A DNA stretch of 64,000 nucleotides from Escherichia coli (GTDB lineage Bacteria > Pseudomonadota > Gammaproteobacteria > Enterobacterales > Enterobacteriaceae), in the NCBI RefSeq assembly GCF_048403405.1, contig NZ_CP183129.1. One strand, 5' to 3'. Shown here one piece after another: positions 1-19,543 of the stretch. Positions within the stretch are counted from its first letter, which is position 1, and each line of letters opens with the position of its first letter. The translations under genes were made by a program, and so were the position numbers. The notes beneath the pieces were generated by a model, which was not told the origin of the DNA, searched no databases, and saw nothing but the letters and a program-made list of their open reading frames with translations.

Positions 1-148
1 CGCCATCCTCGATGCAGAATTTGGTCTGAAAGAGAAAGGCTACACCAGTCTGGTGGTTGTTCCGGTAGGTCATCACAGCGTTGAAGATTTTAACGCTACG
101 CTGCCGAAATCTCGTCTGCCGCAAAACATCACCTTAACCGAAGTGTAA
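1..148 (+). CDS. nfsB: 3' end of oxygen-insensitive NAD(P)H nitroreductase (partial, start outside window)
   Basis: Open frame from position 2 ending TAA 146-148; translated tail ...[29 protein letters not shown] matches recalled NfsB C-terminus; synteny with ybdG/pheP. Confidence 0.85.
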
Positions 149-207
149 TTCTCTCTTGCCGGGCATCTGCCCGGCTATTTCCCCTCAGATTCTCCTGATT
201 TGCATAA

Positions 208-1503
<1,296 letters not shown>

Positions 1504-1512
1504 TTAAAAAAA

Positions 1513-1539
1513 CCGCTCTCATCGAATGGATGAGAGCGG
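1513..1539. terminator. Bidirectional rho-independent terminator hairpin between convergent ybdG and pheP
   Basis: Inverted repeat ccgctctcatcgaatggatgagagcgg flanked by A-run upstream and T-rich tract downstream. Confidence 0.6.
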
Positions 1540-1570
1540 ACATCGTTTTGTCGGATGTAGCGTGAATGCC

Positions 1571-2947
1571 TTATTTCCGACGCAGCGTTTTAAATGCCAC
1601 AAACAGGAATACAATCCACACCGGCAGCAGGATCGCTGACAAGCGCATATCATCCATCGTGCACATCAGCAGCAAAATCATGCCGAGGAAGGCAATACAA
1701 AGATAGTTGCCGAACGGATAAAGCAGCGCCTTAAACTGTGTTTCACGTCCCTGACGTCGCATCGCCGCGCGAAAACGCAGATGCGCCAGGCAGATCATAA
1801 TCCAGTTCAACAGCAGCGTTGCTACCACCAGCGCCATCAGCAGACCAAACGCTTTTTGCGGCAGCAGATAGTTGATTAACACCACCAGCGAAGTGATCGC
1901 TCCGGAAAGCATCAGCGAGTTAATCGGCACGCCGCGACGGCTGACGCGAGTCAAAAACTTCGGCGCATTACCCTGCACAGAAAGGCCAAACAGCATGCGG
2001 CTGTTAGAGTAAACCCCGCTGTTATACACTGACAGCGATGCTACCAGAATGACGAAGTTCAGCGCAGAAGCTACCACGTTGCTGTCGAGATTATGGAAAA
2101 TCATCACAAACGGGCTACTGTTGGATTTCACTTCCACCCACGGATAGAGCGCCAGTAAAACTACCAGTGAACCGATATAAAACAGCAGGATGCGATACAC
2201 TACCTGATTTACCGCTTTCGGAATGCTTTTTTCCGGATCGCGCGCTTCAGCGGCAGTAATCCCAATCAGCTCCAGACCGCCGAAGGAGAACATAATCACC
2301 GCCAGCGACAAAATCAGCCCATTCCAGCCGGTGGCAAAGAAACCACCGTAGCGCCAGAGGTTGTCGATACTGGCTTTCTCGCCGCCGTGCCCAGAAAACA
2401 GCAGCCACAGGCCAAAGCCGATCATACCGATGATCGCCAGCACTTTAATCAGCGCAAACCAGAATTCGGTTTCGCCATATAAGCGCACGTTTACCAGGTT
2501 AACGGCGTTGATGATAATAAAGAAGGCGGCAGCCCAAATCCACGTTGGAACATCCGGGAACCAGTACTGCATATAGATGCCCGCAGCGGTCAGCTCTGCC
2601 ATTCCCACCAGCACGAACATCACCCAGTAGTTCCAGCCGGAGAGGAACCCGGCGAACGGTCCCCAGTATTTATAGGCAAAGTGGGCAAATGAACCGGATA
2701 CCGGCTCTTCGACCACCATCTCGCCGAGCTGGCGCATAATCAGGAAAGCGATGATCCCGGCGACGCCGTAGCCCAGTAATACAGCCGGACCCGCCATCTG
2801 AATCGCCGGGCCAATGCCAAGAAACAGACCAGTACCAATTGCGCCACCCAGCGCAATCAGTTGAATATGACGGTTATGTAATCCGCGATGAAGCGTCGGC
2901 TCTTGATTCGACGCAGTATCTTCCGATACGGTTGACGCGTTTTTCAC
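1571..2947 (-). CDS. pheP: Phenylalanine-specific permease
   Basis: ORF 1571-2983; recalled 458-aa PheP starts MKNASTVSEDTASNQ, which corresponds to the in-frame GTG at 2945-2947. Confidence 0.9.
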   Translation of the reverse strand: MKNASTVSEDTASNQEPTLHRGLHNRHIQLIALGGAIGTGLFLGIGPAIQMAGPAVLLGYGVAGIIAFLIMRQLGEMVVEEPVSGSFAHFAYKYWGPFAGFLSGWNYWVMFVLVGMAELTAAGIYMQYWFPDVPTWIWAAAFFIIINAVNLVNVRLYGETEFWFALIKVLAIIGMIGFGLWLLFSGHGGEKASIDNLWRYGGFFATGWNGLILSLAVIMFSFGGLELIGITAAEARDPEKSIPKAVNQVVYRILLFYIGSLVVLLALYPWVEVKSNSSPFVMIFHNLDSNVVASALNFVILVASLSVYNSGVYSNSRMLFGLSVQGNAPKFLTRVSRRGVPINSLMLSGAITSLVVLINYLLPQKAFGLLMALVVATLLLNWIMICLAHLRFRAAMRRQGRETQFKALLYPFGNYLCIAFLGMILLLMCTMDDMRLSAILLPVWIVFLFVAFKTLRRK

Positions 2948-3048
2948 GCCTTTCCCCTGTGTGTCTTTTTTGTTGAGGGGCACCTTTTAACATTTAGTGC
3001 CCATCGTCGCAAGACACAATCCACACGGTTAAACCGGGTATCCTGCTT

Positions 3049-6000
3049 TTATTTCCGTACCCGATGTCGGTGCAGCCACATCAGCTTATACGCCGCCGGG
3101 ATAATAAACAGCGATAGCAAAGGCGCGGTGATCATGCCGCCAATCATCGGCGCGGCAATCCGGCTCATCACCTCTGAACCTGCTCCCGTTCCCCACAGAA
3201 TCGGCAGCAGACCGGCGATAATCACTGCCACCGTCATCGCTTTCGGGCGCACGCGCAGGACCGCGCCGTGATACAACGCCTCATCCAGCTTCTGCTCGCT
3301 GAATGTTTGCGGATTATTCAACGACGGCTCGACCTCTATGGCGTGACGTAAATACATCAGCATCACCACGCCAAATTCGGCGGCGACTCCGGCGAGGGCA
3401 ATAAAACCGGTGCCCGTCGCCACGGAAAGATGAAAGCCCATCCACCACAGCAACCAGATGCCGCCCACCAGCGCAAACGGTACGCTGCTGATAATCAGCA
3501 ACGCTTCGCCCACCCGACGGAACGCCAGATACAACAGCACGAAGATGATCATCAGCGTCATCGGCACCATGAGTTTCAGCTTATGGTTGGCGCGCTCCAG
3601 TAGCTCGAACTGCCCGGAGAATGTCACGCTGGTGCCCGGTTTTAACTGCACTTTTTCAGCTATCGCTTTTTGCAAATCGTGAACCACCGACACCATGTCA
3701 CGATCGCGGGCATCGATATAAATCCAGCTCGTCGGGCGCGCATTCTCGGTTTTCAGCATCGACGGTCCGGTAGAGACTTTAACGTCGGCCACGTCTGCCA
3801 GGGTGATTTGCTGCTTCATCGGCGTCAGGATCGGCAACTGGCGCAGTGCCTGCGGACTATTGCGCCAGCTTTGCGGATAACGCAGATTAATTGGATAACG
3901 GGCAATCCCTTCCACCGTTTCGCCAACCATCGCCCCGCCCACCGCAGAAGTCACAAACAACTGCACATCCGCCACCGTCATACCGTAACGTGCGGCTTTT
4001 TCACGGTTAATCTCAACGTTGATATAGCGCCCACCTTCCAGACGCTCGGCAAGCGCAGAAGCCACGCCTGGCACCGTTCGTGCCACCTCTTCAATTTGCT
4101 CCGCCATCGCGTCGATATCCGCCAGCACAGTGCCGGAAACTTTAATGCCGATGGGGCTCTTAATGCCGGTTGAGAGCATATCGATACGGTTACGAATTGG
4201 CGGCACCCACAGATTCGCCAGCCCCGGCAGACGCACGGTGTTATCCAGTTCCTCAATGATTTTGTCCATCGTCATGCCTGGCCGCCACTGATCTTGTGGC
4301 TTAAGCTGGATGGTCGTTTCTACCATCTCCAGCGGAGCAGAATCGGTGGCGGTTTCCGCTTTCCCGGTTTTGCCAAATACCCGCGCCACTTCAGGTACGC
4401 TCATAATCAGCTTGTCGGTTTTTTGCAGCATACTCGCCGCCTCTGCTGCGGAAATCCCCGGCAGCGTCGATGGCATATACAACAAGTCGCCTTCATTGAT
4501 CTGCGGTAAAAATTCCCCGCCAACTTTATTGAGCGGCCAGAGAACCGTCAGCACCGAAAGCGCTGCCACCAGCAGCGTGGTTTTTGGCCAGTGCAGTACT
4601 TTCAGCAACAGCGGATGATAAGCACGAATCAAAAAGCGATTGAGCGGGTTACTGCTTTCTGGCGGAATTTTGCCACGGATCCAGTAACCCATCAGGATAG
4701 GGATCACTACGATCGCCAGCAGCGCCGCACCCGCCATCGCATACGTTTTGGTGAACGCCAGCGGGCCAAACAGACGCCCTTCCTGCCCTTCCAGGGTGAA
4801 GATCGGGATAAACGACAACGTGATAATCAGCAGACTGATAAACAGCGCCGGCCCCACTTCAACAGATGCATCGGTGATCACCTGCCAGCGCGTTTTATTA
4901 TCCAGCGTGGCGTCAGGATGCTGGTGCTGCCACTCTTCCAGTCGTTTATGCGCATTCTCGATCATGACGATAGCGGCATCGACCATCGCCCCGACGGCAA
5001 TCGCAATGCCGCCCAGCGACATAATATTGGCATTCAGCCCCTGGAAGTGCATGACAATAAAAGCAATACACAACCCCAGCGGCAACGAAATAATCGCCAC
5101 CAGCGCCGAGCGCACATGCCAGAGAAACAGCGCACAGACTACCGCCACCACAATAAACTCTTCCAGCAACTTGCCGCTGAGGTTGTCGATGGCGCGGTCA
5201 ATGAGCTGGCTGCGATCGTATGTTGTAACTATCTCCACGCCTTCCGGCAGACTGCTTTTCAGCGTTTCCAGTTTGTCTTTCACGGCGGCGATCACTTCTC
5301 GGGCGTTTTTGCCGGAGCGCAGGATCACCACCCCGCCCGCCACTTCGCCTTCGCCGTTCAGTTCGGCAATGCCCCGGCGCATCTCCGGGCCAATCTGGAC
5401 CTTCGCAACATCGCGCAGATAAACGGGCACGCCATTTTCACTGGCTTTTAAAACGATGTGATTAAAGTCGTCGAGCGTTTGCAGATAGCCGCTGGCGCGC
5501 ACCATATATTCCGCTTCCGCCAGTTCGATCGACGAACCGCCCGCTTCCTGGTTTGAAGCATCCAGCGCGCTTTTTACTTCGGCGAGACTGATGCCATATT
5601 GCGCCAGGCGCTGGGGATCGATAACCACCTGATACTCTTTCACCACACCGCCCACCGACGCCACTTCCGCAACGTCAGGGATGGTTTTTAGCTCATATTT
5701 GAGAAACCAGTCCTGCAATGAGCGTAAATCGGCCAGATCGTGCTTACCGCTGCGATCCACCAGTGCATATTCATAGATCCAGCCAACACCCGTGGCATCT
5801 GGCCCCAGCTCAGCGCTGACTCCCGCAGGCAGCTTACCCTGTACCTGGTTGAGGTACTCCAGCACCCGCGAGCGCGCCCAGTATGGATCGGTGCCATCTT
5901 CGAAAATGACATACACATAAGAGTCGCCAAACTGCGAGAAACCGCGCACAGTCTTCGCGCCAGGCACCGACAACATAGTGGTGGTTAGCGGATAAGTCAC

Positions 6001-6192
6001 CTGATTTTCAACGATTTGCGGTGCCTGACCGGGATAGCTGGTTTTAATAATCACCTGCACATCAGAGAGATCCGGCAGTGCATCCACTGGCGTGTTAATG
6101 ATGGTCCAGGTGCCCCAGATACTCAGAAACAACGCGCCCATCAGCACCAGAAAACGGTTCGCCACCGAGCGACGAATAATCCATTCAATCAT
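3049..6192 (-). CDS. cusA: RND copper/silver efflux pump, inner membrane transporter CusA
   Basis: 1047-aa ORF, RND transporter; synteny cusCFBA. Confidence 0.95.
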
Positions 6193-6203
6193 TGGTTATT
6201 CCC

Positions 6204-7427
6204 TCAATGCGCATGGGTAGCACTTTCAGAGCGCATCCGCTCCAGTGCGCCAGAAATATTGGCTTCGGAATCAATCAGGAACAGGCCGCTGGAAACCACC
6301 TTTTCACCTTCCGCCAGACCAGAGCGTAATGCGGTGACGCCTTGCGATGCCTGGAAAACGGCAACGCGTTTCGGTACAAAGCGCCCGTCGGCATCAACGG
6401 TAATCACCCGCTGTTCGCTGCCGGTATCAATCAGCGCTTGTGACGGAATGAGCAGCATCGGTTCGCTGGCGGTGTTGAGTTGCAACCAGGCGTTCATTCC
6501 CGGCTTTAGCGCCTCGTCGGTGTTGTCGACTTCCAGGCGCAGCTGCAGCGTGCGGGTTGCGGCATCCACGCCGGGTAGCAGCGTCCATTTGCGGATGGTG
6601 AGTGTTTTATCAGGTCGTGCCGGAACGGTGAGCGTAAACTGCGAGGCATCTTTCACCAGCCAGGCGATGGACTCCGGGATCGCGGCAGTGATCCACACCG
6701 GATCCATACCCTGAATTTTCGCGACCACGTTATCTTTGGCGATATTCATTCCCGCGCGCAGATCAAACGCGGTGATCACGCCATCAATGGGCGCTTTGAG
6801 CGTAAAGCGAGTCTGGATTTTTTGCGTGGCGATCAGGCGGCGAATATCCGCCTCCGGCATTCCCGCCAGTCTCAGCCGCTCAAGAATGCCTTCAGTCTGG
6901 GTCGCCGTACCGCCAGTTTCGCGCAGCAGTAAATACTCACTCTGCGCTTCCACCCAGTCGGGAATGGTCAGGTCGAGAAGCGGCGCGCCCTTTTGTACTT
7001 TATCGCCCACGGTAAGCGGATACACCTTGTCGATAAACCCGGCGGCGCGGGCCTGCACAATGGCATACTGATACTCGTTGTAACTGACATTCGCCGGGAA
7101 ACTTTGGGCAAAAGTCAGCGGCCCGCGCGTGACGGTCGCCGTTTTCACCCCCAGATTCTGCGTCTGAGTCGGGTCAATGCGCACACCAGACGCAGAACTC
7201 TCTTCATCGGCATATTTCGGCACCAGATCCATATCCATAAACGGCGATTTACCTGGTTTATCGAACCGCGTATTGGGATACATCGGGTCGTACCAGAATA
7301 AGATTTTACGTTCTGCGGTCGACGTTTTTTCTGCGGGCGGTTCCGCCTTTGCAAACCAGGTAAAACCTGCCGCAGAAATAATACCGCCCGCGATCATGCT
7401 GCCGATAATAAGCGCGATTTTTTTCAT
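6204..7427 (-). CDS. cusB: Copper/silver efflux membrane fusion protein CusB
   Basis: 407-aa ORF with signal/TM N-terminus; position between cusF and cusA. Confidence 0.95.
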   Translation of the reverse strand: MKKIALIIGSMIAGGIISAAGFTWFAKAEPPAEKTSTAERKILFWYDPMYPNTRFDKPGKSPFMDMDLVPKYADEESSASGVRIDPTQTQNLGVKTATVTRGPLTFAQSFPANVSYNEYQYAIVQARAAGFIDKVYPLTVGDKVQKGAPLLDLTIPDWVEAQSEYLLLRETGGTATQTEGILERLRLAGMPEADIRRLIATQKIQTRFTLKAPIDGVITAFDLRAGMNIAKDNVVAKIQGMDPVWITAAIPESIAWLVKDASQFTLTVPARPDKTLTIRKWTLLPGVDAATRTLQLRLEVDNTDEALKPGMNAWLQLNTASEPMLLIPSQALIDTGSEQRVITVDADGRFVPKRVAVFQASQGVTALRSGLAEGEKVVSSGLFLIDSEANISGALERMRSESATHAH

Positions 7428-7442
7428 CTCATTAAACCTGGG

Positions 7443-7775
7443 TTACTGGCTGACTTTAATATCCTGTAATAAAGAAAGGTTGCCCTGCTGGACAAAATTA
7501 AACGCCACTTTGTCGCCGGTTTTTATTTCGCCCATCTTCGTCTGCGGGGTGATGGTAAAGCGCATGGTCATCTCCGGCCAGTTCACGGCAGCAATCGGAT
7601 CGTGATGGATAGTGATTTTTTTGCTTTCCAGATCAATACCTTTTACCACCCCTGTGGCACTAATGACCTGCGGTTGTGCTTCGCTCATGGTTTCATGATG
7701 ATGTTCGTTAGCCTGGGCATTAAAGCCAATAACGGTAAACAGACTGAACATTGCGACTTGCAGTGCTTTTTTCAT
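7443..7775 (-). CDS. cusF: Periplasmic copper/silver chaperone CusF
   Basis: 110-aa ORF, signal peptide MKKALQVAMFSLFTVIGFNAQA. Confidence 0.95.
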   Translation of the reverse strand: MKKALQVAMFSLFTVIGFNAQANEHHHETMSEAQPQVISATGVVKGIDLESKKITIHHDPIAAVNWPEMTMRFTITPQTKMGEIKTGDKVAFNFVQQGNLSLLQDIKVSQ

Positions 7776-7798
7776 TTATTCTCTCCTGGAGTTAAAAA

Positions 7799-9175
7799 TT
7801 ATTGCTGCCAACCGCCACCAAGTGCGGTATATAAAGAAATTTCGTTAACCTGACGGGCATAATTCAGGTCAAGTAAAGTTTGTCGGGTTGCAAATAAAGA
7901 ACGTTCGGCATCCAGCACTTCCAGATAACTGACTGCGCCGTGCTGATATAATGCCCGCGCCCGTTGCAAAGTAATTTGCAGCGATGCCAGATAACGCTGC
8001 TGGGCGCTAATTTGATCGTTCAGGCTTTGACGTAATGCCAGCGCATCTGCCACTTCTTTAAAGGCATTCTGGATTTTCTGTTCATAATTCACCACCGACT
8101 GCTGCTGGCGAATTTCGGCGATATCCAGATTGGCCTGGTTGCGTCCGGCATTAAAAATGGGGATCTCAATTTTGGGAATAAAATTCCACATCCCGCTGCT
8201 GGCGTTAAATAAGGACGACAGATCGCTGCTGGCGGTCGATATTCCGCTGGTCAGACTGATAGACGGGAAAAATGCCGCGCGTGCAGCGCCAATATTGGCA
8301 TTAGCCGCCATCAACGCGTGTTCAGCTTCCATAATATCCGGGCGCTGCAATAAGATTTGCGACGACAAGCCCGCCGGTAATTTAACGCTTTGCAGGCTGT
8401 CGCTGTTTACTGTTTGCGCTTGCGGCAGCTTGCCGTAGCTTCCCAGCAACAGTTGCAATGCATTATTCGCCTGCGCCAGTTCCCCCTGACGTTTAGCGAT
8501 GTCGCTGCGGGTACTTTCTATCACCCCGCGAGCCTGTTCCAGCGCCAGAACATTGCTGCTACCGGTCAACAGTTGTTTTTCGACAAACGCATATGACTGC
8601 TGATAATTACGCAGCGTTTCTTCGGCTATTTGCAATTGCGCATACGCCAGTTGCTGATTGAAATAGCTTTGCGCGACATTAGAAACCAGCAGAATATGCA
8701 CCGCGCGCTGGGCTTCCTCAGTGGCTAAATAATTTTGGCGCTCGGCTTCGCTCATGTTCTTTAAGCGACCGAAAAAATCGAGATCAAAGCTGGCGTTAAG
8801 GCCGGTCGAAAACTCCCGTGTCGTGGCGGTATTCCCTTTAAGATTACCGCTCCAGCTGCCGCTGCCCTCGCCATTGAGCTGTGGGTAGCGGTCGGCATCG
8901 GTCAGACGATATTGCGCCCGTGCCTCCTGCACTTTCAGCGTCGCCATGCGCAAATCCCGGTTATTCACCAGCGCCTCGCTAATCAGCGTCTTCACCTGAT
9001 TATCAATAAAAAAGGTGCGCCAGCCCGCGTTCTGGTAGTTATCTGCTGCGTTAACCAGGCCGTTCTGGCTGAGTGAGAACTGCTTCGGTACGGGCATTGC
9101 CGGACGCTGATAATCCGGTGCCAATGAACAACCGGTTAGCGCAAGGGCCACACAAAATGGCAGAAGTTTAGGCAC
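7799..9175 (-). CDS. cusC: Outer membrane factor CusC, 5' end and promoter replaced by IS26
   Basis: 458-aa ORF whose first codon (GTG, complement of 9173-9175) lies inside the IS26 terminal repeat; recalled native N-terminus MSPCKLLPFCV is here (V/M)PKLLPFCV. Confidence 0.85.
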   Translation of the reverse strand: MPKLLPFCVALALTGCSLAPDYQRPAMPVPKQFSLSQNGLVNAADNYQNAGWRTFFIDNQVKTLISEALVNNRDLRMATLKVQEARAQYRLTDADRYPQLNGEGSGSWSGNLKGNTATTREFSTGLNASFDLDFFGRLKNMSEAERQNYLATEEAQRAVHILLVSNVAQSYFNQQLAYAQLQIAEETLRNYQQSYAFVEKQLLTGSSNVLALEQARGVIESTRSDIAKRQGELAQANNALQLLLGSYGKLPQAQTVNSDSLQSVKLPAGLSSQILLQRPDIMEAEHALMAANANIGAARAAFFPSISLTSGISTASSDLSSLFNASSGMWNFIPKIEIPIFNAGRNQANLDIAEIRQQQSVVNYEQKIQNAFKEVADALALRQSLNDQISAQQRYLASLQITLQRARALYQHGAVSYLEVLDAERSLFATRQTLLDLNYARQVNEISLYTALGGGWQQ

Positions 9176-9990
9176 TGTTGCAAATAGTCGGTGGTGATAA
9201 ACTTATCATCCCCTTTTGCTGATGGAGCTGCACATGAACCCATTCAAAGGCCGGCATTTTCAGCGTGACATCATTCTGTGGGCCGTACGCTGGTACTGCA
9301 AATACGGCATCAGTTACCATGAGCTGCAGGAGATGCTGGCTGAACGCGGAGTGAATGTCGATCACTCCACGATTTACCGCTGGGTTCAGCGTTATGCGCC
9401 TGAAATGGAAAAACGGCTGCGCTGGTACTGGCGTAACCCTTCCGATCTTTGCCCGTGGCACATGGATGAAACCTACGTGAAGGTCAATGGCCGCTGGGCG
9501 TATCTGTACCGGGCCGTCGACAGCCGGGGCCGCACTGTCGATTTTTATCTCTCCTCCCGTCGTAACAGCAAAGCTGCATACCGGTTTCTGGGTAAAATCC
9601 TCAACAACGTGAAGAAGTGGCAGATCCCACGATTCATCAACACGGATAAAGCGCCCGCCTATGGTCGCGCGCTTGCTCTGCTCAAACGCGAAGGCCGGTG
9701 CCCGTCTGACGTTGAACACCGACAGATTAAGTACCGGAACAACGTGATTGAATGCGATCATGGCAAACTGAAACGGATAATCAACGCCACGCTGGGATTT
9801 AAATCCATGAAGACGGCTTACGCCACCATCAAAGGTATTGAGGTGATGCGTGCACTACGCAAAGGCCAGGCCTCAGCATTTTATTATGGTGATCCCCTGG
9901 GCGAAATGCGCCTGGTAAGCAGAGTTTTTGAAATGTAAGGCCTTTGAATAAGACAAAAGGCTGCCTCATCGCTAACTTTGCAACAGTGCC
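9171..9990 (+). mobile_element. IS26 (IS6 family), copy 1, 820 bp
   Basis: 14-bp terminal inverted repeats GGCACTGTTGCAAA at 9171-9184 and complement at 9977-9990; internal tnp26 ORF. Confidence 0.95.
9234..9938 (+). CDS. tnpA: IS26 transposase Tnp26 (R29H variant)
   Basis: 234-aa protein MNPFKGRHFQRDIILWAVRWYCKYGISY(H)ELQ... matches recalled Tnp26; codon 29 is CAT here and CGT in copy 2. Confidence 0.95.
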   Translation: MNPFKGRHFQRDIILWAVRWYCKYGISYHELQEMLAERGVNVDHSTIYRWVQRYAPEMEKRLRWYWRNPSDLCPWHMDETYVKVNGRWAYLYRAVDSRGRTVDFYLSSRRNSKAAYRFLGKILNNVKKWQIPRFINTDKAPAYGRALALLKREGRCPSDVEHRQIKYRNNVIECDHGKLKRIINATLGFKSMKTAYATIKGIEVMRALRKGQASAFYYGDPLGEMRLVSRVFEM

Positions 9991-10439
9991 AATTTTACGC
10001 CGTCGGCGGTACGCAGCCAGCGCGGGGATTTGAGTCCTTCCGTGAAATTCCAGACCAGCTCACACAGCAGCCCGGTCAGGGTTTGCTCCATTTTTGGTTC
10101 CGCCGGACGTTCCAGCAGAAGCTGGAGTAGTGCGAGGCAGTATTCGCACAAGGAATCAGGTTCGGAAATAAAGTGCTCTGGTGTGGCGGGAAGGGTATCC
10201 ACGGTCAGGCTTTCGGTAAGATGCGGTGGGATGGGGTCGTGTAGTGTGGGTTGCAGTAGCGCAAGAGCCGCGTGAAGCCGCCCGCAGAGCGCCAGTCGTA
10301 GCGCTGGATCGTCGGTTTCAATCAGGGTTTCGGCAAAGCGGGCGCAGTAGTCAGCAAGGACAGTGAAATCCGTGGTGGCATTGAAGGGGACGGTCAATAG
10401 ATCGAGTAAATCGCTGTCAGTGGTGAGGATTGTAGCCAT
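9972..10439 (-). CDS. Hypothetical protein, 3' end truncated by IS26 (last ~5 codons and stop supplied by IS26)
   Basis: 155-aa ORF with GGAGG 8 nt upstream of ATG; acidic, Leu-rich product; reading frame runs into the IS26 end at 9990. Confidence 0.5.
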   Translation of the reverse strand: MATILTTDSDLLDLLTVPFNATTDFTVLADYCARFAETLIETDDPALRLALCGRLHAALALLQPTLHDPIPPHLTESLTVDTLPATPEHFISEPDSLCEYCLALLQLLLERPAEPKMEQTLTGLLCELVWNFTEGLKSPRWLRTADGVKLALLQS

Positions 10440-10785
10440 AGGGCAACCTCCGATAAGTGGGTGTTCAAGCCACCACCGGAGAGGCTAATCTCGCGGGTGG
10501 TGGAACCGGGCAGGGTTAGCCTTACCAGCCTTATCGGACACTGGCGCGTCTTGCGACGCCCCCGCCCGGCCCACCATTGAGATGTAACCGTGCGAACAAC
10601 ACAAAAAAAGACGCTGGCGCGTCATGTGTCGCCGATAAGATTTCTTCAGGAGGCTAATCCCGACGCCTGATTTTGCAGGCGCGGGAGAAAGATACTGCGA
10701 TTGGTCATGAGTGGCAAGGGCTACATCATGTTTACCGACATCTCACGCAAAAATACCCTGATTATTAATAGCGAAAATCAGTTTC
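10440..10785 (-). other. GC-rich, repeat-rich non-coding region downstream of the RT gene; candidate structured ncRNA
   Basis: No ORF of 60 aa or more; hairpin ccaccacc/ggtggtgg (10481-10503); inverted pair ccgataag/cttatcgg (10451-10458, 10530-10537); direct repeats gaggctaatc (10490-10499 and 10651-10660) and ctggcgcgtc (10541-10550 and 10611-10620). Confidence 0.3.
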
Positions 10786-13700
10786 TTATTTTGGCGGTAG
10801 CTTTTTGCGGTTCTTTGCCAACTGGAATCCTTCAGGTAACGGTTTGAATTTATCGCCGCCTTTAGGCCAGCGTTTTGCCCTGCTCTGAAATGCCCTTAAC
10901 GAGTCGATATCCAGCGTTGCAGCGACCACAAAGTCATTATCACCGCCCTTCACACGAGCAATATCACGCATAAAGGGTTCTTTTGCCGGGGAACGTACGC
11001 GACTATCGCCGTATTTTCGGTTATTCACTAAAATAGTATAGGCATGAATATCCAGCGCTGCTGATTCAATCAACGATGCAAACGTATCTAGATCTTTATT
11101 CCAGCTCAATACCATTAATGCATCGAGTGCGCCCTGAAAACGGATCCTCGCTTTACTATTCTGGAGTTCAGAGCAAATCATAACGCCAAAATTGACGCCG
11201 TGATGAATATATACCGGCTTACGTTGTTTAACATTAAGTGTCGAATCCCAAGACTTACCATAAGTTGAAAATAATGCCTCATCTTCACCTACGGCGGGTT
11301 CCAGCTTGGGTTGCCATATTTTGACACTCGCTGGATAGCCGAGTCTGTTATCTGAAAGGACAAGTACGGCCTCACTCTTCAGTTGATTATCGTCTAAGTG
11401 GCGGTATTCTGTTCCCGCAATTAGACTGATACCCGCCGAACTCAAACGATCAGCAATACTGTTAACCCAGCGTAACGGGATTGAAAGCTCAGGGAATAAA
11501 ACATAATCAGGTTTAGGAGATAGTTTCAATGTTGCATTAACCAGTTCAGAAATCCGCTGGTACCTTGAACGGGACAAGTTAGATTTATTGCAGGCCATTT
11601 TAGCCCAGTCGTCCTCCTCTGTTTTAATGCTGGTTAGCGCAACGACAACTTTATGTTTCCTGTCTGTGCCAATATGAATGAATTTCTTAGGCCGAGCTTT
11701 TTTTGTCGCTTCATCTGAGTCCTGCTCCGATGCTAGCAACGTCGGTTTGATCCATACTCCGCGTAATGCTTGAGTATATTTTGCCCAAATGGTGGACGGT
11801 CTCTCATCTGGTTTTTTGTCGGATGTGGAGGGTAATCCAACACATTCGGGGGCCAGTTCTGATATTTCAGCGGGTGTTAAAGGACGTGTAGGGAAAATGT
11901 AAGGTAGGTAACTTTCGTTTTTACGATTTCCTTTAGCCACTTTTTCCAGTCGGGTATTCTTGGTTGATTTCAAAAATAGCTTAATAACGTCAATATCAAT
12001 AAGCGATGAGTCGCTCATTAATTTCAGTATTTTAACTTCTTTTTTACTATCACGCTGATTAACAAGTTTTTCTGCCGACTGACTCTTTACGATCTGTTTA
12101 TAAGGTTCCTTTGCTAAATCAGCTCGAGCTACCAATGGCGCTTTTAAATAAAAATCTGCTGAATCAAAGCGAAGATCCAGTAAATCCTTTAGATTCGTCA
12201 GACTTTGTGAAATATGATTAAAAAATGTATCCGCAAGGCACTCTTCTTTCTTTGAACGTTTATCAAGAAATAATCTGTCAGGACTGTAATATCGTGTCGC
12301 TGCATCAACAAATAGCCAGCTTAATGTGCCTTTTATACAGCGCCAAAGATCATTTACTGCTCGAGTTTTGCAACCATTTATATTCACTTCCTTACCTGAA
12401 GTAATCACCGATGCCAACAGGTTGATGGATTCGTAAGCTTTAAGTACAATTTTTTCCGCGTGCTGCCATTCATTCATACTGATAGCAAAGCCAAGCAGCC
12501 TTGGCAGATAACTAAAATGTGCAAATAGATTATCAGCCCTAAGAATATGGTTGTAGGCAAACTGATAAAACTCTTCCCGCTGTTCTTTCCATTCACTTGG
12601 AGGCAGATCTCGTGCCAGTGTTTCAACGTAGCGTAATTGCAGTGACCAGCCCAAACGACGAATGGTTAATCCATCCGCACGGCGCAGAGTATCGGCATTT
12701 TCACCTACACTACCGGCAGCGGAAAGGACTTTAGCTGCGGTGGAGTGTTCCAGTTGATCCGGTGAAGGCATCAAGCGGTGTTCACTAGAAAGCTCGTAGA
12801 TCTCCTTTTCGATACTGTCGAGCAGGTCTATTCCAGCCCTCCCTTGAAGCACGAAAAGTTTTTGCTTATCGGATTGTAACTGGATGGTGGTCTTACCCTG
12901 GAAATGCTCGCCCTGCTGTATTTGCCATATTTGTTTTTGCTCGTTTTTCAAATAAACGCAATCATTGCCAAGCCTATCTTGCAGCAATAACATAAATTCG
13001 TGATTATTAGTAATTGTCCCTGTATCGCGTATTACAAGGAACATATCATCGACATAACGACCGTAGTGAATTGGTGATAGTTTTTCAATGACTAATTTAT
13101 CCCAATGGTGTAGCAATATATTTGAAATGATCCGACTGGCTGTTAATCCAATGACCAGACCACCATTAATAACAGGTGTTTTGTACGCTATTTTCTTTCC
13201 AAATGCCGCTGCGCCGTCAGACCAGTGCTTTAAGAATACTGCTAACTGTGCAGTAAACGCTTTTTCATCCTCAGTCAGTTTTATGTTTAGTGTGTTATAG
13301 AGATCATCAGAGGTTATAGCCAGTGGATCAATAAAATGATAGTAACTTTTTAAATCCAGTGAGGCGGCGATAATGTCACGATCTTTTTCCAACTCGTCAC
13401 GTATAGCTTTTAAGCCATCACCACGCCATTTTTGGTAGGGCTGGAAGTAGGGGCTAAAAGAACCCACGGCACTGATATGGAATGGATTATCCTGCTCATT
13501 GCTAAATAATTCATCATTACGAATACGCTTTAGCCGCGCGCCATAGCAACAGTTATCTAAGCTGGCATCAAATTTATGCCCGACCATGTTAATCCATAGT
13601 GCAGAGATAATGTGACTATCAACCGGGAAGTCACCAATAATACGAAACTCTGGTATCAGATCAAAATTATTAAATAAATGGTCGGCTGCTCGTTTAGGAT

Positions 13701-13995
13701 TAGAAAAGTGGACGTGTCCATTTTGGGATTCATGTTTTTTCTTTGTGGTTAATTTTTTCGGTAACAAACGAAATTTGCCAATCAACTTCTTATTGCTACT
13801 GAATCCATCTTCGCTCTGCAAAAGATCTAAGAGTTTTTGCAGGTTTTCAAGTAATTCCTGCTCATACTCGGCAAATTTGATAGCAACAGGAAATGTATTC
13901 TCAAAGAAGCTATCGGCTTTTGCTTTCCGGTAAGCGACCAGAAGGTCTTCAATCGTCAGATCATCCCAGCCAGTGAAAATTGCCTGATATGTCAT
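10786..13995 (-). CDS. Defence-associated reverse transcriptase fused to C-terminal nitrilase (CN-hydrolase) domain, DRT type 1-like (UG1-like)
   Basis: 1069-aa ORF with AAGGA RBS; RT motifs LDLKSYYHFID, GGLVIGLTASRIISNILL, YVDD (complement of 13045-13056); nitrilase triad context FPELS, VKIWQPK, GVMICSEL (Cys codon complement of 11173-11175). Confidence 0.75.
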   Translation of the reverse strand: MTYQAIFTGWDDLTIEDLLVAYRKAKADSFFENTFPVAIKFAEYEQELLENLQKLLDLLQSEDGFSSNKKLIGKFRLLPKKLTTKKKHESQNGHVHFSNPKRAADHLFNNFDLIPEFRIIGDFPVDSHIISALWINMVGHKFDASLDNCCYGARLKRIRNDELFSNEQDNPFHISAVGSFSPYFQPYQKWRGDGLKAIRDELEKDRDIIAASLDLKSYYHFIDPLAITSDDLYNTLNIKLTEDEKAFTAQLAVFLKHWSDGAAAFGKKIAYKTPVINGGLVIGLTASRIISNILLHHWDKLVIEKLSPIHYGRYVDDMFLVIRDTGTITNNHEFMLLLQDRLGNDCVYLKNEQKQIWQIQQGEHFQGKTTIQLQSDKQKLFVLQGRAGIDLLDSIEKEIYELSSEHRLMPSPDQLEHSTAAKVLSAAGSVGENADTLRRADGLTIRRLGWSLQLRYVETLARDLPPSEWKEQREEFYQFAYNHILRADNLFAHFSYLPRLLGFAISMNEWQHAEKIVLKAYESINLLASVITSGKEVNINGCKTRAVNDLWRCIKGTLSWLFVDAATRYYSPDRLFLDKRSKKEECLADTFFNHISQSLTNLKDLLDLRFDSADFYLKAPLVARADLAKEPYKQIVKSQSAEKLVNQRDSKKEVKILKLMSDSSLIDIDVIKLFLKSTKNTRLEKVAKGNRKNESYLPYIFPTRPLTPAEISELAPECVGLPSTSDKKPDERPSTIWAKYTQALRGVWIKPTLLASEQDSDEATKKARPKKFIHIGTDRKHKVVVALTSIKTEEDDWAKMACNKSNLSRSRYQRISELVNATLKLSPKPDYVLFPELSIPLRWVNSIADRLSSAGISLIAGTEYRHLDDNQLKSEAVLVLSDNRLGYPASVKIWQPKLEPAVGEDEALFSTYGKSWDSTLNVKQRKPVYIHHGVNFGVMICSELQNSKARIRFQGALDALMVLSWNKDLDTFASLIESAALDIHAYTILVNNRKYGDSRVRSPAKEPFMRDIARVKGGDNDFVVAATLDIDSLRAFQSRAKRWPKGGDKFKPLPEGFQLAKNRKKLPPK

Positions 13996-14289
13996 GCGTT
14001 ATCGTCCTTAGATTACAGTCTGTACAGAATTAGCCAGCCGTTTCATGCCCGAAGGGGGGCTCTTGACACCAGTAATCCATCAGTGAGGCTGGCAATAATT
14101 TTGATTTGTATCCATGTTACACGCTCCCCGCAACCAGTCCGAGCATATATTTGTCACATTTTTCCCGAAAGTGATTAAGTTTGAATTTTTTGTTTAATGT
14201 CGATTTTTAGTCGACAAAATGAGGAATAAGTAAACTATTTCTTGCTGTGGCGTATCCCTGAATCTACACTGGTTTAAATATTTGTACTA
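13996..14289. promoter_or_regulatory. Divergent promoter region between RT gene and abiEi, with palindrome gtcgatttttagtcgac (14200-14216)
   Basis: AT-rich 294-bp spacer between divergently oriented genes; inverted repeat is a candidate AbiEi operator. Confidence 0.35.
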
Positions 14290-15093
14290 ATGTCTATTCA
14301 GAGGCGACAGTTGCCAAACTATCTAAACTGGCTGATGCAGCACACGCTACCCGGCCAGGTGCTGCTCCAGTCATGGCTTACCCGCAACGGCATAGATCGT
14401 AAGCTCTCTTATCTCTATGTGAAGAATGGCTGGCTCAGGCGGATCGCTCACGGCGTATACTGCCGGACGGGCCGTGAGCCGGATTGGGTAGACGCGGTTT
14501 ACTGCCTTCAAACACAGTGGGAAAAGCCTGTTCGGGTGGCGGGGCTAACCAGCCTTGCGCTTCAGGGCCATGCGCACTATACCGAACCGGGTAAGCCGCA
14601 GGTCTGGCTCGCGCTTCCGGCTTACGTTAAGCTGCCGGGATGGTTTGCTGCCTTCGAACAATCTGCAACATTTATCACGCTGTATACATCGGGGCTTACC
14701 GTAGATGTAACGTCATTGACTACGGAACTGAAAATTGGCGACCGCCAGTTAGCAGGCAGTGCCCCGGAACTGGCCGCGTATGAGATCGCCTGCGGCGTTC
14801 CTTCGTTGATATCGTTCGAACATGCCGATGCTCTGTTTCAGGGGATGAATCTTCTCAGCCCACGCAAATTGCAGGCACTGCTTCGCGCCAGCCATTCGGT
14901 TAAAACCAACCGGGTGATGCTTTACCTTGCCCGGCGTAATGGACACCCTTATTTTCAGTATATTGATCAAAGCGGTATAGAAACAGGTACGGGAAAGCGG
15001 CAAATCATACCCGGCGGCTGGCTGGAGCCGGATTATCAAATTACTGTTCCACGCGCATTTAAACCGGAAGGAGTCGAAGATGGATCTGCGTGA
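14290..15093 (+). CDS. abiEi: AbiEi-family antitoxin/transcriptional regulator (type IV TA / abortive infection)
   Basis: 267-aa ORF, N-terminal motif ...GWLRRIAHGVY typical of AbiEi; overlaps downstream AbiEii gene by 14 nt. Confidence 0.7.
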   Translation: MSIQRRQLPNYLNWLMQHTLPGQVLLQSWLTRNGIDRKLSYLYVKNGWLRRIAHGVYCRTGREPDWVDAVYCLQTQWEKPVRVAGLTSLALQGHAHYTEPGKPQVWLALPAYVKLPGWFAAFEQSATFITLYTSGLTVDVTSLTTELKIGDRQLAGSAPELAAYEIACGVPSLISFEHADALFQGMNLLSPRKLQALLRASHSVKTNRVMLYLARRNGHPYFQYIDQSGIETGTGKRQIIPGGWLEPDYQITVPRAFKPEGVEDGSA

Positions 15094-16000
15094 TAGCTAT
15101 GCCCGGCAGGTCAAACTGTTGATGGCCGCTCTGCCGTATGTGGCGAAGGAGTCCTGTTTCGCGTTGAAAGGCGGCACCGCAATCAATTTGTTTGTGCAGG
15201 ATTTTCCCCGTCTGTCGGTGGATATTGATCTGGCGTACAAGAGCTTTGCGGATCGCGATACTGATTTGGCGGCTATCAACGACGCTTTGAAGAGGATTAC
15301 TGCATCGCTGAACGGCAGACCGGGGATCACCGCGATTCGGCAGGAAAATAAAGCGGATGAAAAGCGCATCATTGTGAATACCGCTGATGCAAAGATTAAG
15401 ATCGAGGTTAGCCCGGTCTGGCGCGGGCTGTTGTTGCCTCCGGCAGAAATGCCTGTGTGCGAACGTGTGGAAATGGAGTATGGCTTCACCACCATGAGTG
15501 TCGTCTCGCTGGCGGATCTTTATGGCGGTAAAATCTGCGCTGCGCTTGATCGTCAGCACCCGCGCGATCTGTTTGATGTGCTGAATATGCTGGAGAAACC
15601 GGGACTGATGCGGGAGATCTTTGACGGTTTTCTTTGTTATCTGGCAGGCCATCCCCGCCCCATCGCCGAGTTGCTGGCTCCAAACTGGGATACAGAGCGG
15701 ATCGCCACGTTGTACGCGCAGGAATTTTCGGGGATGACTCAGCAGGAAACGTCGCTGGAATCGCTGCTGTCAGTAACGACTTTGCTGCCGCAGGCGTTGA
15801 AGTCACATCTTACGGATCTGGATCGCGAGTTCTTGCTCAGTTTTAAGCAAAACAGCCCTGACTGGTCGCGGTATCGCTATCCTGAAATTCAGCATCTTCC
15901 GGCTATTCGCTGGAAGCAACGTAATCTGGCGGTGCTGAAAGATAAAAATCCGGCGAAGTATGTGGCGGCGGTGAATAAGCTAGAGAGGGTGCTGGCGTAA
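15080..16000 (+). CDS. abiEii: AbiEii/AbiGii-family nucleotidyltransferase toxin
   Basis: 306-aa ORF with SD GGAAGGA; motif ALKGGTAINLF...RLSVDIDLAY characteristic of AbiEii (DUF1814). Confidence 0.75.
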   Translation: MDLRDSYARQVKLLMAALPYVAKESCFALKGGTAINLFVQDFPRLSVDIDLAYKSFADRDTDLAAINDALKRITASLNGRPGITAIRQENKADEKRIIVNTADAKIKIEVSPVWRGLLLPPAEMPVCERVEMEYGFTTMSVVSLADLYGGKICAALDRQHPRDLFDVLNMLEKPGLMREIFDGFLCYLAGHPRPIAELLAPNWDTERIATLYAQEFSGMTQQETSLESLLSVTTLLPQALKSHLTDLDREFLLSFKQNSPDWSRYRYPEIQHLPAIRWKQRNLAVLKDKNPAKYVAAVNKLERVLA

Positions 16001-16364
16001 TCAATAGACCAGCATTAATCACGGATGATTACCAATCAGACAGATATGGTTAAATCATCGAATTCATAATTAATACTTTTTCTTACGCCGCTGAACAGCT
16101 TGAAAAGGATACATATTTTAAATATCAGTGAAGTGGACAGTTTATTGCCGTTATTAATAGAGATGGAGGAATAAATACGCGTATTCTACTATTGCAACAA
16201 AAACAACGATGATGATCAGTTTTCATAATGAAGTAACCTGACAGATATAAAAATGTTGATTGAGGCTCAATGCCCGGATGAAGGTTGTCGAGGGAGCCAG
16301 GTGGTTTTTTCTTTTGGGTGATCTCCATTGCTGGATAGTCCCCTCTTTCTCGCTCAAAGCAGAC

Positions 16365-16689
16365 TGTACTGCACCCATTTTGTTGGACGATGAAATGGAA
16401 TAGCCCCTAATATGTCAAAGCCAAAATACCCTTTTGAAAAGCGCCTTGAAGTCGTGAATCACTACTTCACAACTGATGATGGTTACAGGATCATCTCGGC
16501 ACGTTTTGGTGTCCCCCGAACCCAGGTCAGGACATGGGTTGCCCTCTATGAAAAACATGGAGAAAAAGGTTTAATTCCCAAACCTAAAGGCGTTAGTGCT
16601 GATCCAGAGTTGCGTATTAAGGTCGTGAAAGCTGTGATCGAGCAGCACATGTCCCTTAATCAGGCTGCTGCTCACTTTATGCTTGCTGG
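16365..16689 (+). mobile_element. IS150 (IS3 family) left-end fragment, truncated by IS26
   Basis: Begins TGTACTGCACCCATTTTGTTGGACG; encodes the N-terminal ~90 aa of InsJ/OrfA (MSKPKYPFEKRLEVVNHYFTTDDGYRIISARFGVP...) ending at the IS26 boundary. Confidence 0.8.
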
Positions 16690-17509
16690 GGCACTGTTGC
16701 AAATAGTCGGTGGTGATAAACTTATCATCCCCTTTTGCTGATGGAGCTGCACATGAACCCATTCAAAGGCCGGCATTTTCAGCGTGACATCATTCTGTGG
16801 GCCGTACGCTGGTACTGCAAATACGGCATCAGTTACCGTGAGCTGCAGGAGATGCTGGCTGAACGCGGAGTGAATGTCGATCACTCCACGATTTACCGCT
16901 GGGTTCAGCGTTATGCGCCTGAAATGGAAAAACGGCTGCGCTGGTACTGGCGTAACCCTTCCGATCTTTGCCCGTGGCACATGGATGAAACCTACGTGAA
17001 GGTCAATGGCCGCTGGGCGTATCTGTACCGGGCCGTCGACAGCCGGGGCCGCACTGTCGATTTTTATCTCTCCTCCCGTCGTAACAGCAAAGCTGCATAC
17101 CGGTTTCTGGGTAAAATCCTCAACAACGTGAAGAAGTGGCAGATCCCACGATTCATCAACACGGATAAAGCGCCCGCCTATGGTCGCGCGCTTGCTCTGC
17201 TCAAACGCGAAGGCCGGTGCCCGTCTGACGTTGAACACCGACAGATTAAGTACCGGAACAACGTGATTGAATGCGATCATGGCAAACTGAAACGGATAAT
17301 CAACGCCACGCTGGGATTTAAATCCATGAAGACGGCTTACGCCACCATCAAAGGTATTGAGGTGATGCGTGCACTACGCAAAGGCCAGGCCTCAGCATTT
17401 TATTATGGTGATCCCCTGGGCGAAATGCGCCTGGTAAGCAGAGTTTTTGAAATGTAAGGCCTTTGAATAAGACAAAAGGCTGCCTCATCGCTAACTTTGC
17501 AACAGTGCC
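16690..17509 (+). mobile_element. IS26, copy 2, 820 bp, same orientation as copy 1
   Basis: Terminal repeats GGCACTGTTGCAAA at 16690-16703 and complement at 17496-17509. Confidence 0.95.
16753..17457 (+). CDS. tnpA: IS26 transposase Tnp26
   Basis: 234-aa protein matching recalled Tnp26 (R29). Confidence 0.95.
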   Translation: MNPFKGRHFQRDIILWAVRWYCKYGISYRELQEMLAERGVNVDHSTIYRWVQRYAPEMEKRLRWYWRNPSDLCPWHMDETYVKVNGRWAYLYRAVDSRGRTVDFYLSSRRNSKAAYRFLGKILNNVKKWQIPRFINTDKAPAYGRALALLKREGRCPSDVEHRQIKYRNNVIECDHGKLKRIINATLGFKSMKTAYATIKGIEVMRALRKGQASAFYYGDPLGEMRLVSRVFEM

Positions 17510-19543
17510 AAACCGTTAGCGATTATGGTTCCGGCGTGGAATGAAACGGGCGTCATCGGCAATATGGCCGAGCTGGCGGCGACCACGCTCGACTATGAAA
17601 ACTATCATATCTTTGTTGGCACCTACCCCAACGACCCCGATACACAGCGTGATGTTGACGAAGTGTGCGCTCGCTTCCCGAACGTGCATAAGGTAGTCTG
17701 CGCGCGTCCTGGCCCCACCAGCAAAGCCGACTGCCTGAACAACGTGCTGGACGCCATCACCCAGTTTGAGCGTAGCGCCAATTTCGCTTTTGCTGGTTTT
17801 ATTCTGCATGACGCCGAAGACGTAATTTCACCGATGGAATTGCGTCTGTTCAACTATCTGGTCGAGCGTAAAGATCTGATTCAGATCCCGGTGTATCCGT
17901 TCGAACGCGAATGGACGCACTTCACCAGCATGACTTACATTGATGAGTTTTCAGAACTGCATGGCAAAGATGTTCCGGTGCGTGAAGCCCTCGCCGGACA
18001 AGTGCCCAGCGCAGGCGTCGGTACCTGTTTCAGCCGCCGCGCCGTGACCGCACTGTTAGCTGACGGTGACGGTATTGCTTTCGACGTGCAGAGTCTTACT
18101 GAAGATTACGACATTGGTTTCCGCCTGAAAGAAAAAGGTATGACGGAAATTTTTGTCCGTTTTCCGGTGGTGGACGAAGCCAAAGAACGCGAGCAGCGTA
18201 AATTTTTACAGCACGCGCGGACGTCAAACATGATCTGCATGCGCGAATATTTCCCTGATACCTTTTCGACTGCGGTTCGACAAAAATCTCGCTGGATCAT
18301 CGGCATTGTTTTCCAGGGCTTTAAAACCCACAAATGGACCTCCAGCCTGACGCTGAACTACTTTCTCTGGCGCGACCGCAAAGGGGCAATCAGTAACTTT
18401 GTCAGCTTTCTCGCGATGCTGGTGATGATCCAGCTTCTGCTGTTACTGGCGTATGAAAGTTTGTGGCCCGATGCCTGGCATTTCCTTTCTATTTTCAGCG
18501 GCAGCGCATGGTTAATGACCCTGCTGTGGCTAAACTTTGGTTTGATGGTTAACCGCATCGTGCAGCGGGTGATTTTTGTCACTGGCTACTACGGTCTGAC
18601 GCAGGGGCTGCTATCTGTCCTGCGTCTTTTCTGGGGCAACCTGATTAACTTCATGGCCAACTGGCGCGCGTTAAAACAGGTACTTCAACACGGCGATCCA
18701 CGTCGTGTCGCGTGGGATAAAACAACGCATGACTTCCCCAGCGTGACTGGCGATACCCGCTCGTTGCGCCCGTTAGGCCAAATTCTGCTGGAAAATCAGG
18801 TCATCACTGAAGAACAACTCGATACAGCACTGCGTAATCGCGTCGAAGGTCTACGCCTGGGCGGTTCAATGCTGATGCAGGGGCTGATTAGCGCCGAACA
18901 GCTGGCACAGGCGCTGGCAGAGCAAAACGGCGTGGCGTGGGAATCCATCGACGCCTGGCAGATCCCGTCCTCGCTGATTGCCGAAATGCCGGCCTCCGTG
19001 GCGCTGCATTATGCAGTGCTGCCGCTGCGTCTGGAAAATGATGAGTTAATTGTCGGCAGTGAAGATGGTATTGACCCGGTTTCGCTGGCGGCCCTGACGC
19101 GTAAAGTCGGACGCAAAGTGCGTTACGTCATTGTTCTGCGGGGACAAATTGTCACGGGGTTACGTCACTGGTATGCACGCCGACGCGGTCACGATCCGCG
19201 GGCAATGTTGTACAATGCGATTCAGCATCAGTGGCTCACGGAACAGCAGGCCGGTGAAATCTGGCGGCAATATGTGCCGCATCAGTTCCTGTTCGCCGAA
19301 ATACTGACCACGCTCGGTCATATTAATCGTTCAGCAATTAACGTGTTGTTATTGCGCCATGAACGCAGTTCTCTGCCGCTCGGCAAGTTTTTGGTCACCG
19401 AAGGCGTTATCAGCCAGGAAACGTTGGATCGCGTCCTGACAATTCAACGCGAATTACAAGTTTCGATGCAATCACTATTACTCAAAGCAGGTTTAAACAC
19501 AGAACAGGTTGCGCAACTGGAGTCCGAAAATGAAGGAGAATAA
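17510..19543 (+). pseudogene. nfrB: nfrB (c-di-GMP-controlled glycosyltransferase, phage N4 adsorption protein B), 5'-truncated by IS26
   Basis: Native reading frame begins directly at the IS26 right end (KPLAIMVPAWNETGVIGN...); ~70 N-terminal codons of the recalled 745-aa NfrB are missing; longest ORF 17525-19543. Confidence 0.85.

Follow-up and report, generated by a model that had tools for sequence, protein, structure and literature searches.

An IS26-bracketed chromosomal segment with anti-phage genes at the cusC-nfrB locus of an Escherichia coli strain

In one strain of Escherichia coli (GCF_048403405.1), two directly oriented copies of the insertion sequence (IS) IS26 lie between cusC and nfrB and bracket 6,699 bp of chromosomal DNA carrying anti-phage genes. 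The window analysed here is a 64,000-nt stretch of contig NZ_CP183129.1. The bracketed segment has its native place next to the tRNA-Thr gene thrW, at a distance of ~320 kb from nfrB, where its orientation is opposite to that of the cus/nfr flanks. On balance, we favour an IS26-driven, multi-step move of the segment within the genome and then an adjacent deletion, in a clone that is almost identical to strain MS 69-1. The locus is made up as follows.

7799-9170, minus strand: cusC without its first 11 nt (NCBIfam NF007347, positions 5-460 of 461); its own promoter and regulators are gone
9171-9990, plus strand: IS26 copy 1 (tnp26 at 9234-9938), carrying the R29H change
9991-15989: piece of the thrW-side islet, 100% identical to TUM14771 and MS 69-1
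15990-16364: 375 bp of thrW-LysR-pao locus backbone, 99.7% common to the islet-free strain FDAARGOS_1289
16154-16222: ykgR remnant, inside the backbone part
16365-16689, plus strand: first 325 nt of IS150 (left inverted repeat and 5' part of insJ), 100% identical to the IS150 of MS 69-1 and cut by IS26 copy 2
16690-17509, plus strand: IS26 copy 2 (tnp26 at 16753-17457), canonical sequence
17510-19543, plus strand: nfrB without its first 204 nt and its promoter (NCBIfam NF008411, positions 68-722 of 723)

The IS26 copies and their junctions

Repeat search and direct comparison gave two 820-bp repeats, at exactly the coordinates where the initial annotation had placed two direct IS26 copies. Both copies have a perfect 14-bp terminal inverted repeat, with GGCACTGTTGCAAA at the start and its reverse complement at the end. 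Each encodes a 234-residue DDE transposase, Tnp26 (NCBIfam NF033587, transpos_IS6, 274 bits against a cut-off of 125). Since an 820-bp repeat with one mismatch cannot be due to chance, the two copies are real. No further IS26 ends were found in the window.

The only difference between the copies is at IS26 nt 149 (window 9319), where copy 1 has a private G-to-A change and copy 2 the canonical base. The resulting R29H lies in helix 2 of the DNA-binding domain of Tnp26 (domain limits from PMC8477213). A 61-nt probe around the variant, run on 5,426 complete E. coli genomes, was always one mismatch off, and the variant was absent from all 22,057 IS26 places in them. The change could be a real, later mutation affecting activity, or a consensus error.

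Read in order, the 8-bp flanks are GAAGTTTA / IS26 copy 1 / AATTTTAC at the cusC side and CTTGCTGG / IS26 copy 2 / AAACCGTT at the nfrB side, in agreement with the initial annotation. Comparison of the four flanks with each other, and with the reference just past each breakpoint, revealed no direct or inverted pair within the window, and no target-site duplication. Neither copy has the 8-bp duplication of a simple insertion around it, which supports the earlier view that the structure is not one simple insertion. Nor does such a duplication surround the whole IS26-segment-IS26 structure: its outer flanks, GAAGTTTA and AAACCGTT, are different, and the target locus is short of 19,579 bp. Missing target duplications are expected after cointegrate formation, inversion or deletion, and they are therefore no argument against the identity of IS26.

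With two direct, plus-strand IS26 copies bracketing a passenger 6,699 bp long, the structure has the form of a pseudo-compound transposon. It resembles the IS26 pseudo-compound transposons and translocatable units of Harmer and Hall (Tn4352-type, IS26-bounded resistance islands), in which a passenger likewise lies between two direct, essentially identical IS26 copies. Together with one IS26, the passenger makes up a stretch of 7,519 bp that is built like a translocatable unit. In contrast to the described examples, there is no resistance gene, and the passenger is the host's own chromosome with anti-phage genes. Further differences are the lack of a flanking 8-bp duplication and the absence of 19.6 kb from the target locus.

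Origin of the segment and loss at the target locus

Window positions 9991-16364 were identical to the thrW-side islet copy of TUM14771 and MS 69-1 at 6374 of 6374 positions. A total of 258 E. coli genomes matched 95% of the 6,699-bp query, that is, all of 9991-16364. Six strains matched this part at 100% (TUM14771, GN02461, 4621, MS 69-1, TUM1226 and OX030728), and the identity in other lineages was at most 99.6% (differences of 0.4-0.7%). The 891-bp nfrB flank was 100% identical in four of these six strains and 99.9% in two; other lineages reach 99.9% too.

In the native order, proA and thrW are followed by a prophage (in some genomes), integrase remnants, a hypothetical gene, ash, the gene for a 1,069-residue protein, AbiEi, AbiEii, the ykgR remnant, LysR and pao. 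Positions 15990-16364 are locus backbone rather than islet, because the islet-free FDAARGOS_1289 has them too. Backbone and IS150 at the right end mean that the segment is a contiguous chromosomal chunk, cut by IS26 at arbitrary positions, and not a discrete element. Most of a decayed integrative element is contained in it. The unrelated FDAARGOS_1289 has a complete IS150, with the target duplication GAC, at the same base and in the same orientation beside the ykgR remnant (window 16365, L007 12266). This shared site points to an IS150 hot spot, or to a polymorphism spread by recombination.

The initial annotation had described the inner segment as foreign to this locus, and none of the related genomes among the complete E. 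coli genomes had it between cusC and nfrB. Its suggestion of delivery from a plasmid or resistance context did not hold. The segment is 100% identical over 9991-16364 to the thrW islet of its own clone, it carries 375 bp of locus backbone and a truncated IS150, and the only plasmid records containing it are pseudo-plasmids of chromosomal thrW-region DNA; no genuine plasmid carries it. Judged by these alignments, the structure is an intragenomic rearrangement and not an acquisition. MS 69-1 plasmid unnamed1 contained no IS26.

The two pseudo-plasmid records, NZ_CP146678.1 (MS 69-1 'plasmid unnamed3', 64,057 bp, L002) and CP088862.1 (pA16EC0305-2, 35,406 bp, L008), are circular and consist wholly of chromosomal thrW-region DNA. 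Both contain a myovirus-like prophage and the reverse transcriptase (RT)-nitrilase gene, and the 64-kb record also contains AbiE, pao and ecp genes. The content of MS 69-1 'plasmid unnamed3' duplicates chromosomal content. Such records could result from over-replication driven by the prophage, from circular excision or from an assembly artefact.

The flanks of the segment were compared with MS 69-1. The 9,170 bp of window 1-9170 contained a single mismatch (99.989% identity), and the match ended 11 nt short of the cusC start. Window 17510-64000 (46,491 bp) also had one mismatch and showed no rearrangement, the match beginning 204 nt into nfrB. At the level of sequence, the flanks belong to the MS 69-1 clone.

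Relative to MS 69-1, the window lacks 19,579 bp, the equivalent of MS 69-1 L006 24315-43893. This interval comprises 11 nt of cusC, cusR, cusS, vgrG, a DcrB-like gene, several Rhs/immunity genes, ISAs1 and 204 nt of nfrB. Between cusC and nfrB, both MS 69-1 and 4621 have cusR, cusS, vgrG, the DcrB-related gene, a long Rhs gene and ISAs1, together with several orphan Rhs/PAAR fragments and presumed immunity genes. In MS 69-1, the vgrG/DcrB-like/Rhs cluster with its orphan Rhs tips and ISAs1 occupies 16 kb between cusS and nfrB (L006 27340-43492), and the whole cluster is absent from the window.

The initial annotation had stated that cusRS was replaced, and that cusC and nfrB end at IS26 termini. 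Both genes are indeed cut there, and cusR and cusS were not found anywhere in the window, including between the IS26 copies. The replaced interval is, as the alignment to MS 69-1 showed, the much larger one that includes the vgrG/Rhs cluster and ISAs1. The smaller estimate arose because the earlier reading used the K-12 gene order (nfrA-nfrB-cusS-cusR-cusC), in which only 150 bp separate cusS and nfrB.

At the cusC side, an in-frame GTG from the IS26 terminus, located at 9175-9173 on the minus strand, makes the open reading frame (ORF) read MPKLLPFC... compared with the native MSPCKLLPFC.... The source of this GTG is the IS26-terminal GGCAC (9170-9175, minus strand). The lipoprotein signal peptide is almost intact, and the promoter and ribosome-binding site are gone. 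The lost part of nfrB amounts to 68 codons, including a predicted transmembrane helix (19-residue Kyte-Doolittle maximum 2.07). A consensus scan for hybrid outward promoters at the IS26 ends, toward cusC or nfrB, found none at its threshold; a TTGCAA/GATTAT pair on the nfrB side was rejected, scoring only 8/12.

Proposed route and alternatives

IS26 makes only cointegrates, and its intramolecular reactions lead to inversion or adjacent deletion (PMC4471558). After an inversion, the IS is present in two inverted copies with an 8-bp duplication that is inverted as well; an adjacent deletion releases a circular translocatable unit, and no duplication stays behind (PMC4471558). The structure in the window shares with the intramolecular replicative transposition events of He et al. 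2015 (PMC4471558) the lack of abutted target duplications, the deletion of DNA from an IS26 end and the inversion of the relocated segment. Those events were mainly on plasmids, whereas the present one is chromosomal and extends over 320 kb, and here the diagnostic inverted 8-bp partners would lie outside the window, if they exist.

The anatomy of the locus and its four breakpoints are established, as are the native site and orientation of the segment and the nature of its cargo. We infer the order of events, which in the favoured reading would be as follows. One IS26 would enter at one edge of the thrW-side segment. Two successive intramolecular copy-in inversions could then carry the segment to cusC; alternatively, IS26 and the segment could be excised as a translocatable unit and re-inserted into cusC. 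The intermediate of either route would be IS26-segment-IS26 flanked by an 8-bp duplication. From this, the right-hand IS26 would make an adjacent deletion into nfrB, removing 19.6 kb together with the duplication. The outcome would be an inverted segment, 320 kb from its native site, between two direct IS26 copies. By both routes, a lone IS26 would remain at thrW, between ...CACTGATAAATTTTAC and CTTGCTGGTAGTGGTT (the rest of IS150).

The inversion route was run symbolically, starting from one IS26 that enters at the segment's left edge. It proceeded by an inversion to the cusC target, a second inversion with its target within IS150, and an adjacent deletion reaching into nfrB. Its product had the order seen in the window, with the segment inverted, the IS26 copies direct and no duplications. 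In the symbolic model, the translocatable-unit route gave the same end product.

Four points weigh against this reading. The route requires at least four events. The one-base difference between the IS26 copies is not predicted by replicative duplication. The nearest relatives have no IS150 beside the ykgR remnant, and an extra IS150 insertion in this lineage must be assumed. Finally, no intermediate was found, none of the 5,426 genomes having IS26 at any of the four breakpoints. No record of these genomes spanned any of the outer or inner junctions, and never more than one side of a junction was covered. The exact sequences of both inner junctions were also absent from metagenome contigs, and that of the cusC junction from species-representative genomes. 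Look-ups for identical proteins gave no hit for truncated NfrB, the InsJ'-IS26 fusion ORF, Tnp26 R29H or CusC with its IS26-derived start.

That the segment moved, rather than being copied, would be part of the favoured reading. If it was copied, thrW would keep the segment with one or two IS26 copies, and a translocatable unit from one sister chromosome would have inserted into cus-nfrB of the other. The genome would then have two copies of the RT-nitrilase and AbiE genes, with the 19.6 kb still deleted. Anatomy and identities would be equal to those expected from a move, and cargo carried in IS26 translocatable units and pseudo-compound transposons is known to become duplicated and amplified (e.g. 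PMC7530762). However, nothing in the window favours a second copy, and none of the complete E. coli genomes had an IS26-flanked segment at thrW. We regard copying as unlikely, though it is the alternative that survives best.

Likewise, the 19.6 kb would have been lost and not relocated. In a reciprocal swap, two nested inversions would have exchanged the 6.7-kb and 19.6-kb segments; cusRS-vgrG-Rhs would then be located at thrW in inverted orientation, bracketed by IS26 copies, and nothing would be deleted. The inverted orientation of the segment relative to its native one is what nested inversions require, and IS26 inversions are common (PMC4471558). Such a swap would start from two independent IS26 copies, or from homologous recombination among four IS26 insertions. 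With a minimum of two independent IS26 entries, or of four insertions and two recombinations, it is less parsimonious than the one-entry routes. We consider it quite improbable.

An assembly artefact, in which contigs were misjoined across the 820-bp repeat with IS26 at several of the four breakpoints, appears very unlikely. IS26 repeats are a classic cause of misjoins, polishing could have introduced the single-base difference between the copies, and the configuration is unique among the 5,426 genomes. A misjoin would still need IS26 at four specific sites, though, and both joins are mutually consistent, giving exactly the structure that known IS26 reactions predict.

Horizontal delivery into cus-nfrB of an IS26-bounded unit built in another host or plasmid is highly improbable because the closest relatives of the cargo are also those of the flanks, the 6374/6374 match being to the thrW copy of the strains with the best-matching flanks and other lineages differing by 0.4-0.7%; IS26 is usually plasmid-borne (18,678 of the 22,057 places), but this segment includes locus backbone and an IS150 fragment, is on no genuine plasmid, and has junctions that were not found in metagenome or species-representative contigs.

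Cargo genes and consequences

The segment carries the following genes and RNAs.

9972-10439, minus strand: hypothetical gene, ~155-156 residues, its last 6 codons (3' end) replaced by IS26 copy 1
10485-10658, minus strand: 'ash family' ORF, overlapped by the C4 and isrK RNAs
10493-10581, minus strand: C4 antisense RNA (Rfam, 71 bits)
10604-10682, minus strand: isrK Hfq-binding RNA (Rfam, 69 bits)
10786-13995, minus strand: UG5-large RT-nitrilase (DRT), 1,069 residues (PADLOC RT_UG5-nitrilase, PDLC03780, 1034 bits, residues 1-1068)
14311-15093, plus strand: AbiEi (PADLOC, 264 bits)
15080-16000, plus strand: AbiEii (PADLOC, 385 bits)

The PADLOC matches bear out the cargo assignment of the initial annotation, an anti-phage reverse transcriptase plus an Abi pair. 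UG5-large belongs to the class 3 UG/Abi reverse transcriptases, and a downstream transmembrane partner is found in a minority of its members. The protein encoded here has the catalytic YVDD at residue 314 of its RT domain, and a C-terminal C-N hydrolase (nitrilase) domain (PADLOC RTasNitrilase, residues 783-1058, E = 1.9e-43) with the Cys motif ICSE at residue 941. Pfam gave no significant domain on the 1,069-residue protein. It agrees with known UG5-large RT-nitrilase systems in matching the PADLOC model end to end, in the YVDD and nitrilase Cys motifs, and in its location on a decayed integrative element beside a second defence system.

The UG5-large system of E. coli E101, from a P4 hotspot, needed a transmembrane partner (PMC9226505). 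In contrast to E101, no such partner gene is present here: none of the ORFs in 9991-16689 had a 19-residue Kyte-Doolittle mean above 1.4. DRT11 of Sinorhizobium meliloti needs none and works with RT and nitrilase alone, according to a preprint (bioRxiv 10.64898/2025.12.16.694600). The UG5-large allele shared by the 258 genomes may work alone like DRT11, or it may be inactive.

AbiEi and AbiEii are adjacent and overlap by 14 nt (15080-15093). With this overlap and the strong PADLOC matches they correspond to AbiE type IV toxin-antitoxin/abortive infection systems, with no notable difference. The AbiE allele is the same as in 258 other E. coli genomes. The back-to-back C4 and isrK RNAs over the 'ash' ORF fit a decayed phage or satellite element that left its regulatory module in the islet.

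From known gene functions, cusCFBA would be left without a promoter and without its CusRS activator, and Cus copper/silver efflux would be silent. Truncation of NfrB probably switches off the NfrB-dependent phage N4 receptor pathway, and one VgrG/Rhs effector set of the type VI secretion system would be lost. The defence genes keep their own promoters, and their function should therefore be unchanged.

The defence pair now has the form of an IS26 pseudo-compound transposon, from which IS26 cargo is known to reach other IS26-bearing replicons, and could pass to IS26-bearing plasmids. It is doubtful, in our estimation quite strongly so, that the anti-phage module (RT-nitrilase plus AbiE) has been recruited into a functional translocatable unit, as a first step to the spread of defence on IS26-rich resistance plasmids. 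On this improbable reading, phage pressure could have selected the rearrangement, since it also inactivates the N4-receptor gene nfrB. A full-text literature search found no description of an IS26-bounded unit with DRT or AbiE cargo.

IS26 has been studied almost entirely as a plasmid carrier of antibiotic-resistance genes. As a single, strain-specific event, the rearrangement described here is an illustrative case and not a new principle, and its mechanism is textbook IS26 behaviour. What is unusual is the cargo, which consists of the host's chromosomal anti-phage genes instead of resistance genes. At the same locus, the strain loses its copper/silver sensing along with a type VI effector set and a gene of phage-receptor biosynthesis, collateral change caused by one insertion sequence in a pandemic clinical lineage.

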